DNA of 17,336 nucleotides. It comes from a virus (taxonomy: Duplodnaviria; Heunggongvirae; Uroviricota; Caudoviricetes). The stretch lies in IMG/VR virus record IMGVR_UViG_2636416089_000002; one strand, written 5' to 3'. A program made the translations under genes and the position numbers. The notes below the pieces were generated by a model, which saw only the letters and a list, made by a program, of their open reading frames with translations, had not been told where the DNA came from and ran no database searches. Below, piece by piece: positions 2,823 through 3,311 of the stretch. Position 1 is the first letter of the stretch, and every line of letters begins with the position of its first letter.

Positions 2823-3015
2823 GAATCCTCCCGGCCGGGATAATATTGTGAGTAAAATGAGGAGCGGGCTGAAGTCCGGAAGTTACAGGACAATGGCAGA
2901 AGAGAGACAATAGCCCGCAATACGAAAAAGGCCGCGCTATTGCGCAGAGTGATTACTGTCGGATATTATTCGCCAGCTGAAATATTACTTCACGTTTTGT
3001 TGTTTATTCCTTGCC

Positions 3016-3044
3016 GCCCGCGTCTCCCTGCGCGGGATTTTTTT
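3016..3044 (+). terminator. Candidate plus-strand intrinsic terminator in the tRNA/nanS gap
   Basis: CCCGCG-tctccctg-CGCGGG followed by ATTTTTTT on the plus strand. Confidence 0.45.
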
Positions 3045-3050
3045 GTCCAT

Positions 3051-3074
3051 AAGAAAGCCCCTCCGGAGAGGGGC
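3051..3074 (-). terminator. Candidate minus-strand terminator hairpin (weak U-tract)
   Basis: Minus strand GCCCCTC-tccg-GAGGGGC followed by TTTCTT. Confidence 0.3.
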
Positions 3075-3271
3075 TGGAGAGTGGCGCTATGTGCCATTGC
3101 ATGGTGCCGGGTGCCTCCCGGTGAATTCAGTACCAGCACCTGAATCCGCGATTATCCCATATACCTACTCGCTGATTGCCCCTCCGCACAGGGGGATTCA
3201 CCATGCCAGTTTCTTTTAACAAACTCCCCGCAAAACAGACAACTGTCAACCGTCTGAATTGTGAGACATTT

Positions 3272-3297
3272 AAAAAAAAGGCCCGCAAAAGCGAGCC
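3272..3297 (-). terminator. Candidate intrinsic terminator immediately downstream of the tRNA cluster
   Basis: Minus strand GGCTCGC-tttt-GCGGGCC (one G-U pair) followed by T8. Confidence 0.55.
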
Positions 3298-3311
3298 AGG
3301 GAAAATAAGTG

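Follow-up and report, generated by a model that had tools for sequence, protein, structure and literature searches.

We analyzed a 17,336-nt stretch of Caudoviricetes DNA (IMG/VR record IMGVR_UViG_2636416089_000002; hereafter, the window) and concentrated on the 489-bp interval 2823-3311, which lies between three tRNA genes and the esterase gene nanS-p in the late region of a prophage. Upstream of the tRNAs is an N6/N4 methylase, and downstream of the interval follow nanS-p (DUF1737/SASA esterase, starting at 2822), a P21-type holin, and a YdfR/DUF1327 protein (all assigned by Pfam). This order of methyltransferase, three tRNAs, nanS-p, and holin, detected here with ARAGORN and Pfam, had led an earlier note on this DNA to describe a late region of the Shiga toxin (Stx)-converting phage type with an empty toxin site. 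We agree with that note that 2823-3311 contains no credible open reading frame (ORF): the mechanical ORFs of 67-77 amino acids overlap RNA genes or tRNAs, and PGAP marks only a 42-codon pseudo-fragment that is antisense to STnc100. On the evidence computed here (sequence identity, Rfam family membership, mapped junctions, a conserved promoter and terminator, and covariation specific to one strand), we interpret the interval as a toxin-free, Stx-type moron-slot region that encodes a convergent pair of Hfq-binding small RNAs (sRNAs), i.e., STnc100/EcOnc05 on the late (minus) strand and an EcOnc08/21/42 RNA on the plus strand. We assign this reading a probability of roughly 0.85. The features on which it depends are the following.

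3272..3297, minus strand: intrinsic terminator of the tRNA operon, GGCUCGC-UUUU-GCGGGCC followed by U8 (scan hit 3297..3280 plus T8)
3269..3270, no strand: cargo junction (BLAST breakpoints 3268 / 3271 in three loci, and junction sequences)
3235..3045, minus strand: STnc100 (RF02076) sRNA gene, EcOnc05 of Sakai prophage Sp4 (Rfam and EcOnc05 probe match)
3046..3075, minus strand: STnc100 terminator hairpin, AGCCCCUC-UCCG-GAGGGGCU followed by UUUCUUAU (scan hit 3075..3056)
3017..3044, plus strand: intrinsic terminator, CCCGCG-UCUCCCUG-CGCGGG followed by A U7 (scan and 11 compensating stems)
2976..3044, plus strand: predicted ~69-nt sRNA, EcOnc08-type allele (promoter geometry and terminator; predicted start)
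2940..2969, plus strand: predicted promoter with -35 TTGCGC (2940-2945), an 18-nt spacer, and -10 TATTAT (2964-2969) (comparison of relatives)
2879..2970, plus strand: upstream part of a longer EcOnc21/42 RNA, ~271 nt by northern blot (probe match and Table S2 peaks)
2932..2947, minus strand: weak hairpin overlapping the -35 hexamer (scan; fold z = -1.15)

The terminators and promoter hexamers that the earlier note had listed were all recovered in place. A consensus scan of 1.1 kb returned five terminator-like sites, compared with 1.2 +/- 1.1 expected in shuffled sequence, and these include minus 3297..3280 with T8, minus 3075..3056, plus 3017..3036 with T7, and the weak minus 2947..2932. The fold of the tRNA terminator reached z = -4.15, that of the 3075..3056 hairpin region z = -3.14, and that of the 69-nt plus-strand RNA z = -1.75.

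The late-strand RNA matches the full-length STnc100 model (positions 1-206) at 3235..3045 with 139.2 bits (E = 3.5e-31), compared with a gathering score of 47. Its membership of the family is borne out by this score, by a covarying structure with a 3' terminator (6 of the 54 predicted pairs show compensatory changes among five homologues), and by its prophage late-region context: in 933W, Sp5, Sp15, Sp4, phi296, Nil3, and Stx2_130296, STnc100 likewise occupies the late strand between the moron site and nanS-p. The hairpin that the earlier note had recorded as a weaker minus-strand hairpin at 3051..3074 is indeed present, but that note had missed that it is the terminator of STnc100. Both northern probes published for the Sakai RNAs (EcOnc05 and EcOnc08/21/42) match the window exactly. 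Since the EcOnc05 probe matches the plus strand at 3143-3177, the EcOnc05 RNA lies on the minus strand. In Sp4, EcOnc05 has been reported as a ~222-nt RNA and detected by Hfq cross-linking and analysis of cDNA (CRAC) (PMC4104026); this size would put the 5' end of the window's STnc100 near 3268.

Two observations concern the start of this RNA. A TTGACA hexamer (3244-3249, minus strand), which Sp5 conserves, stands shortly before the point at which the Rfam match to STnc100 begins. In addition, the published STnc100 sizes (222 nt in Sp4, and 235/247 nt in Sp5) would place the 5' end at the cargo junction, which is the left edge of the shared segment, and it is therefore a possibility that STnc100 is processed from upstream transcripts.

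The same data bear on whether the interval might encode a small protein instead, such as the PGAP pseudo-ORF at 3091-3216 (plus strand) or the small ORFs of phage phi296. Although PGAP annotates a "hypothetical protein" fragment here and PHANOTATE calls three small ORFs in phi296, PGAP itself flags its fragment as incomplete, and that fragment is antisense to the 139-bit Rfam RNA, where variation follows base-pair covariation and not codon structure. Moreover, the ORFs are not conserved between alleles. We consider a protein-coding role highly improbable.

On the opposite strand, the terminator at 3017..3044 ends directly against the STnc100 3' end, so the convergent terminators described in the earlier note hold up, with the two 3' ends abutting at 3044/3045. 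The sequence of the EcOnc08/21/42 northern probe, AATAATATCCGACAGTAATCACTCTGCGCAATAGC, is found without a mismatch on the minus strand at 2936-2970. Therefore, the RNA that it detects, for which a band of ~271 nt has been published (PMC4104026), is a plus-strand RNA and covers the proposed promoter; its 5' end lies somewhere between ~2774 and 2879. The window module is 98-99% identical to those of Sp4 and Sp15, and this identity, together with the probe match on the correct strand, assigns it to EcOnc08/21/42.

To place the published Hfq-binding peaks, coordinates from Table S2 of Tree et al. were mapped via offsets calibrated by the probes (Sp4) and by AsxR (Sp5). The offset relative to NC_002695.2 amounts to about +135-140 nt at Sp5 (AsxR) and about 0 at Sp4 (probes). 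Uncorrected transfer to NC_002695.2 was rejected, as it mislocates peaks (e.g., EcOnc42 inside nanS-p). After calibration, the plus-strand peaks fall at 2970-3042 (EcOnc08), 2879-2964 (EcOnc21), and ~2879-2961 (EcOnc42 of Sp15), and the EcOnc05 peak falls at minus 3174..3066. The calibrated EcOnc42 position agrees with its published location 3' of the toxin gene stx1 (Sy et al. 2020, PMC7547250). EcOnc08, the strongest antisense peak in Sp4, coincides with the predicted short RNA, in which a G/U-rich 5' part without structure precedes a GC hairpin and U7. The earlier note had proposed a roughly 70-nt plus-strand transcript at this site. Its 3' end is supported by the detection in Sp4 of an Hfq-bound RNA that ends at the terminator (PMC4104026), whereas the only published band is ~271 nt and the ~70-nt form is predicted from promoter geometry.

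Regarding the promoter, a 36-nt segment of the window (2912-2947) is 92% identical to the Sp5 AsxR module; the similarity ends at the -35 element (TTGCGCAG), and the sequences are unrelated beyond it. The Sp5 promoter reads TTGCGC-18 nt-TAAAAT, with the AsxR 5' end 6 nt after the -10, and the 5' ends of EcOnc01-03 have been described as primary transcription starts (PMC4104026). We then turned to a larger sample. Searching IMG/VR for an invariant core motif of STnc100 yielded 120 loci; once these were pooled with the window and the previously collected loci, 130 instances were usable. Downstream, 40 of them carry a window-type antisense module (with several diverged variants in addition), 23 a module of the AsxR/AgvB/EcOnc03 type, and 35 an iraM gene; the remainder carry other sequence. 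Exactly 18 nt separate TTGC(G/A)(C/A) from TA(TT/AA)AT in 70/70 sRNA-module instances (31 unique), while the spacers between the hexamers belong to at least seven unrelated sequence families. The promoter of the earlier note is thus supported: its -35 element and 18-nt spacing are those of the AsxR and AgvB promoters, and they are conserved across the 31 unique alleles. Across the sRNA-type modules, the predicted RNAs measure 53-77 nt, including 69 nt for the window.

The terminator varies in a manner that is specific to the plus strand. Within the window-like group we tabulated 11 distinct compensating stems of 6-8 bp, each followed by 6-8 U; the exception is the Sp15 copy, in which a mismatch leaves 3 closed pairs. 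On the plus-strand RNA, 20/223 pairs are G.U, and the late strand would have C.A mismatches in their place. Covariation was derived from this stem-indexed tabulation; a column-based count on a MAFFT alignment was discarded because three alleles were one column out of register. In addition, two blocks in the body of the RNA, CUUCACGUUUU and UUCCUUGCC, are conserved across alleles whose stems differ.

We also considered whether the conserved block at the -35 could reflect a late-strand terminator, given the minus-strand hairpin at 2947..2932. This candidate was rejected: the hairpin is weak (z = -1.15) and is lost in four diverged alleles that keep TTGCGC. It is probably not a functional late-strand terminator and, for the same reason, we attribute the conservation of the block to the -35 element.

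An RNA gene is not the only conceivable use of a plus-strand hairpin followed by a T-run, which might act solely as a backstop terminator that keeps stray antisense transcription away from STnc100 and the tRNAs. Convergent units are commonly separated by back-to-back terminators, and the 69-nt RNA folds only modestly better than its shuffles. Against this, a conserved promoter lies at a fixed distance upstream, CUUCACGUUUU and UUCCUUGCC are maintained although the stems differ, and Hfq-bound reads as well as a northern band have been found on the plus strand in Sakai, with a discrete RNA already reported for Sp4 and Sp15. We therefore rate a backstop-only function as very unlikely.

A more serious rival holds that only the long (~271 nt) plus-strand RNA exists, and that TTGCGC-18-TATTAT is not a promoter but a segment conserved because the long RNA or the DNA is constrained. 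It would account for the published probe over 2936-2970 detecting ~271 nt, for the EcOnc21/42 Hfq peaks lying upstream of the proposed start (2879-2964), and for a promoter that matches the consensus at just 8/12 positions. Yet invariant hexamers and 18-nt spacing around at least seven unrelated spacers form the pattern of a promoter rather than of an RNA element. Furthermore, AsxR and AgvB are transcribed from the homologous promoter and have 5' ends that mapping showed to be primary (PMC4104026); in Sp5, the 5' end of AsxR was mapped 6 nt after TAAAAT. The strongest Sp4 antisense peak covers 2970-3042, where the short RNA is predicted. We judge the long-only explanation to be improbable, although it is the strongest of the rivals. 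Taken together, the hexamers, fixed spacing, free spacers, compensating stems, conserved body blocks, and Hfq peak support an RNA of ~70 nt.

Our interpretation as a convergent sRNA pair has several points against it. For this strain, the support comes from sequence, as expression, Hfq binding, and RNA sizes were all determined in Sakai. The published probe lies upstream of the transcription start predicted for the ~69-nt RNA, and the sole reported band is ~271 nt; we found no promoter that would give 271 nt, the candidates predicting RNAs of 194 or 232 nt. With 8/12 consensus matches, TTGCGC-18-TATTAT falls below the scan threshold and, taken alone, is at chance level. Past the -35 region, we detected no similarity between the plus-strand RNA and AsxR, AgvB, or EcOnc03. 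On the late strand, the window's STnc100 scores lower than the Stx2-phage copies (139 vs 208 bits) because of internal deletions. Moreover, no convincing STnc100 promoter was found, with nothing usable upstream of 3268, and the perfect TTGACA at 3249..3244 (minus) has no recognizable -10 at 16-19 nt.

To define the cargo boundaries, as the earlier note had proposed, we aligned the window with Stx-positive relatives. BLAST alignments with the Stx2 phages Sp5, 933W, and Stx2_130296 cover window positions 2725-3268 and 3271-3700, and in all three phages a 1,332-bp stx2AB cassette (50 nt, stx2A, stx2B, and 41 nt) falls between 3268 and 3271. This supports the synteny of an Stx-phage-type late region without the toxin and fixes the boundaries of the stx2 cassette to within a few bases, although at the sequence level the boundary is fuzzy over ~3262-3271. 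The junction directly follows the T-run of the terminator 3' of argO, and in Sp5 that hairpin is kept upstream of stx2A. No Stx remnant was detected: a tblastn search of the whole window with Stx1A/B and Stx2A/B, the check for StxA and StxB that the earlier note had suggested, gave a best E of 0.5. Because ~445 bp of the interval are also present downstream of stxB in Stx phages, the empty site proper is the ~2-nt junction at 3269/3270 and not the whole 489 bp. Accordingly, the toxin site described in the earlier note does lack the toxin, but the interval itself is not empty, as it carries STnc100/EcOnc05, an already described sRNA of ~190-220 nt, and the plus-strand sRNA gene.

An empty junction of this kind could also be a scar, left when a former Stx phage lost stxAB precisely, rather than an ancestral empty backbone. 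Indeed, both flanks are 85-91% identical to Stx2 phages, and the prophage shows decay elsewhere (the Q/pR' and nanS-p deletions and the methylase frameshift, described below). However, other stx-negative prophages match the flanks better (98-100%) than any Stx phage does, the identical empty arrangement is found in Sakai Sp4 and in many chromosomes other than those of Stx-producing E. coli, and no stx fragment is left. In the viral-contig sample, the tRNA terminator stands directly upstream of STnc100 in 39 instances, the commonest identified context, versus 12 for stxB. A scar is, in our view, unlikely.

The comparison with stx-negative relatives revealed a second site of exchange. In strain 100416 and phage vB_EcoS-640R1, the plus-strand anti-adapter gene iraM (locus L014, 127-756, and locus L011, ~930-1800) replaces window 2824-3055, i.e., exactly the antisense sRNA module. 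The interval thus contains two cargo slots, the sense one at 3269/3270 and a second, exchangeable one between nanS-p and STnc100, in which the antisense gene sits behind a fixed promoter. An unrelated gene in stx-negative relatives is what the earlier note had said would count against its interpretation; such a gene does exist in form, since iraM takes the place of the plus-strand module in some of them, but as an occupant of the second slot it does not undermine that interpretation.

With respect to the phage itself, the synteny of Shiga toxin-converting phages (methylase, ileZ-argN-argO, [stx], nanS-p, and holin) is present, while stxA and stxB are absent, as is an antiterminator Q with pR'/tR' upstream of the cargo site. 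Since stx and Q are both missing, the window prophage is not an Stx phage. Two rows of the feature list describe the lesions involved.

4860..4863, no strand: deletion junction with 4-nt microhomology, ~702 bp missing relative to the closest relative (strain 100416; locus L014, 2562-3267)
1324..2822, minus strand: nanS-p (SASA esterase) pseudogene, ORFs 1683-2822 and 1324-1737

Strain 100416, the closest relative, carries Q between a DUF968/HNH gene and the methylase, and the ~702-bp deletion takes nearly all of Q, the sequence downstream of Q that should contain pR'/tR', and the N-terminal end of a small hypothetical protein. Among the ORFs of the window, we found no other that resembles Q. 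nanS-p has lost ~355 bp internally at 1693-1695 (3-nt microhomology, with a frameshift) relative to the intact 617-amino-acid gene of strain AR_0372. The methylase lacks one C after 3940, which splits it into ORFs 3611-4066 and 3937-4659 (relatives have an intact gene of 1,050 bp), and it is either a pseudogene or a sequencing error. Based on the Q/pR' deletion, the 1-nt methylase deletion, and the nanS-p deletion, the prophage appears to be decaying, with its tRNAs and sRNA dyad still intact. With Q and the pR' region lost, the interval is unlikely to receive late transcription here. Hence, the earlier note's description of the short RNA as antisense to late transcription is right as to strand, the RNA being on the plus strand opposite the late genes, but late transcription is probably absent here. 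In relatives that are intact, polymerase modified by Q would not stop at the minus-strand terminators.

Collectively, these data suggest the following model. The ileZ-argN-argO operon would be transcribed on the late strand and end at the terminator 3297..3272, after which the stxAB cassette follows in Stx phages. STnc100/EcOnc05 would be transcribed on the same strand, from ~3235-3268 down to 3045, and end at its own terminator, and the plus-strand EcOnc08/21/42 RNA would end at the 3017-3044 terminator. The plus-strand gene occupies the second slot behind the fixed promoter TTGCGC-18 nt-TATTAT (TAAAAT in other alleles), a slot that in other prophages holds the AsxR, AgvB, or EcOnc03 anti-sRNAs or iraM. 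From this promoter, a ~69-nt RNA (2976-3044) is predicted, and the longer ~271-nt species would start further upstream. The lysogen is presumed to make both sRNAs without the need for Q; by analogy with AsxR (a sponge of FnrS) and AgvB (a sponge of GcvB), they may act as Hfq-dependent base-pairing regulators of host RNAs. Both the start of the short form and this mode of regulation are inferred, and the functional analogy is tentative since sequence similarity to AsxR and AgvB ends at the -35.

A further proposal, which we offer tentatively and regard as possible rather than probable, is that the EcOnc08-type allele represents an uncharacterized sister class of the AsxR/AgvB anti-sRNAs with a ~69-nt primary transcript that northern blotting missed. 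Such a transcript would start downstream of the published probe and would thus have escaped it. A conserved single-stranded segment of this RNA, CUUCACGUUUUGUUGUUUAUUCCUUGCC, is rich in G/U and looks like the R1 seed of GcvB rather than a GcvB target. If this proposal were correct, the RNA could have CA-rich sites in mRNAs or AgvB-like RNAs as its targets rather than being a sponge of GcvB, and the slot would be an exchangeable seed cassette, holding sRNA alleles or iraM behind one fixed promoter.

Upstream of the interval, the tRNA operon comprises the following features.

3571..3599, minus strand: sigma-70-like promoter TTGAAG-17-TATTAT (9/12 consensus matches), in the 49-bp gap from the methylase stop to the first tRNA
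3486-3561, minus strand: tRNA-CAT (ileZ) (ARAGORN and Rfam tRNA match)
3402-3478, minus strand: tRNA-Arg-TCG (argN) (ARAGORN and Rfam tRNA match)
3312-3388, minus strand: tRNA-Arg-TCT (argO) (ARAGORN and Rfam tRNA match)

The CAT tRNA is tRNA-Ile (ileZ) according to the RefSeq annotation of identical loci, and the Sakai Sp4 counterparts of the operon (3312..3561) are annotated ileZ1/argN1/argO1. TTGAAG-17-TATTAT at 3599..3571 is likely the promoter of the operon, as judged from its sequence and position.

Other RNA features were noted elsewhere in the window. A strong terminator-like hairpin (12 pairs plus a T-run) is present on the minus strand at 1241..1213, in the ~150-nt gap from the nanS-p stop to the holin start (1205-1323). 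The hairpin of 1205-1323 (minus) had no Rfam match, and this segment may be another late-strand sRNA; a preprint on Pas sRNAs puts PasA/PasC at this position, with PasD across the esterase from them (bioRxiv 10.64898/2026.05.13.724894). Further along, 10464-11308 (minus) contains two tandem C4 antisense RNAs (RF01695, 75 and 80 bits), each followed by an isrK Hfq-binding RNA (RF01394, 57 and 62 bits). These copies overlap or precede paralogous Rha/anti-repressor-like ORFs at 9855-10706 and 10703-11365, and the region resembles either a duplicated c4-ant immunity module of the P1/P7 type or an isrK module of the Gifsy type.

The 489-bp interval is 100% identical in several E. coli chromosomes, and matches to it occur in 2,866 of 5,426 complete E. 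coli genomes, 973 of which are covered over at least 80% of its length. Its relevance is therefore mainly one of annotation: in about half of complete E. coli genomes, intervals of this type are left blank or called a "hypothetical protein" pseudogene, where they hold two experimentally detected Hfq-binding sRNA genes. This will not surprise specialists in the sRNAs of enterohemorrhagic E. coli, and the essentials have already been described in Rfam, by Tree et al. 2014, Sy et al. 2020, and Sy & Tree 2021, and, for the related Pas sRNAs, by Zhu et al. 2026.

Among known systems, the closest is the argO1-ECs_1088 interval of Sakai Sp4, which has the same 489-bp length, ~99% identity (~5 mismatches in 489 bp), and the same flanking genes, is likewise without a toxin, and carries EcOnc05 and EcOnc08/EcOnc21 (PMC4104026). 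One of the mismatches, at position 3037, is an A instead of C that removes the outermost pair of the plus-strand terminator stem (7 vs 8 pairs), and the window prophage additionally lacks Q/pR'. Convergent sRNAs between a moron coding sequence and a conserved downstream ORF have been reported in eight Sakai prophages (Tree et al. 2014, PMC4104026), and dyads of Hfq-binding sRNAs in at least eight, with EcOnc42/21/08 confirmed by northern blot and CRAC (PMC7873438).

The window's STnc100 is a homologue of EcOnc27/sRNA103, which lies downstream of stx2B. STnc100 sits 75 nt downstream of stx2 (PMC12370729) and has been equated with the Hfq-binding sRNA EcOnc27/sRNA103; overexpression of the Sp5 homologue reportedly raised fimZ and espA transcripts (PMC12711010; PMC7873438), and single-nucleotide polymorphisms in STnc100/EcOnc27 that predict hemolytic uremic syndrome were recently reported (PMC12711010). 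PasD1/PasD2 of enteropathogenic E. coli E2348/69 is a late-strand prophage sRNA with an STnc100-related structure, located between Q and the sialate esterase (bioRxiv 10.64898/2026.05.13.724894); the window copy scores as STnc100 proper and was set against PasD by description only. More broadly, the lambda-type late operon, with cargo between Q/pR' and the lysis genes behind terminators, provides the frame that Tree et al. also used (PMC4104026), except that Q/pR' is deleted in the window.

The EcOnc27/AsxR dyad of Sp5 and 933W shares with the window the slot, the convergent geometry with abutting 3' ends (in 933W, AsxR at 2653-2705 (+) and STnc100 at 2912-2707 (-)), a homologous STnc100, and the same -35 and spacing. 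It differs in having stx2AB upstream, and the AsxR body, -10 (TAAAAT), and terminator are unrelated in sequence to those of the window; AsxR, a sponge of FnrS, is 54 nt long, and the window RNA is predicted to be 69 nt. The AgvB/EcOnc06 dyad (Sp10 and Sp17) and EcOnc03 (Sp9) belong to the same class of short convergent sRNA genes with TTGCGC-18-TAAAAT, beside STnc100-type RNAs. AsxR, AgvB, and EcOnc03 have a conserved ~42-nt 3' region (GUAUCUCAUGC..UUGCCCGAACCCAYUCGGGC) that the window RNA lacks, and AgvB carries a CACAACA mimic of GcvB targets where the window RNA is G/U-rich. Neither AsxR (RF02703) nor AgvB (RF02702) matched 900-3700 in Rfam at E <= 1, and BLAST similarity was confined to the 36 nt ending at the -35; assignment of the plus-strand RNA to either was therefore rejected. 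As in that class, its 3' end converges on and abuts an STnc100-type 3' end between the moron site and nanS-p (3044/3045), and the TTGCGC-18-(-10) geometry is present, with a predicted length of 69 nt from a predicted start versus 51-60 nt for the class and a published band of ~271 nt. The locus is thus a member of STnc100 and of EcOnc08/21/42 that would work like the EcOnc27/AsxR dyad but carries an antisense RNA distinct from AsxR and AgvB.

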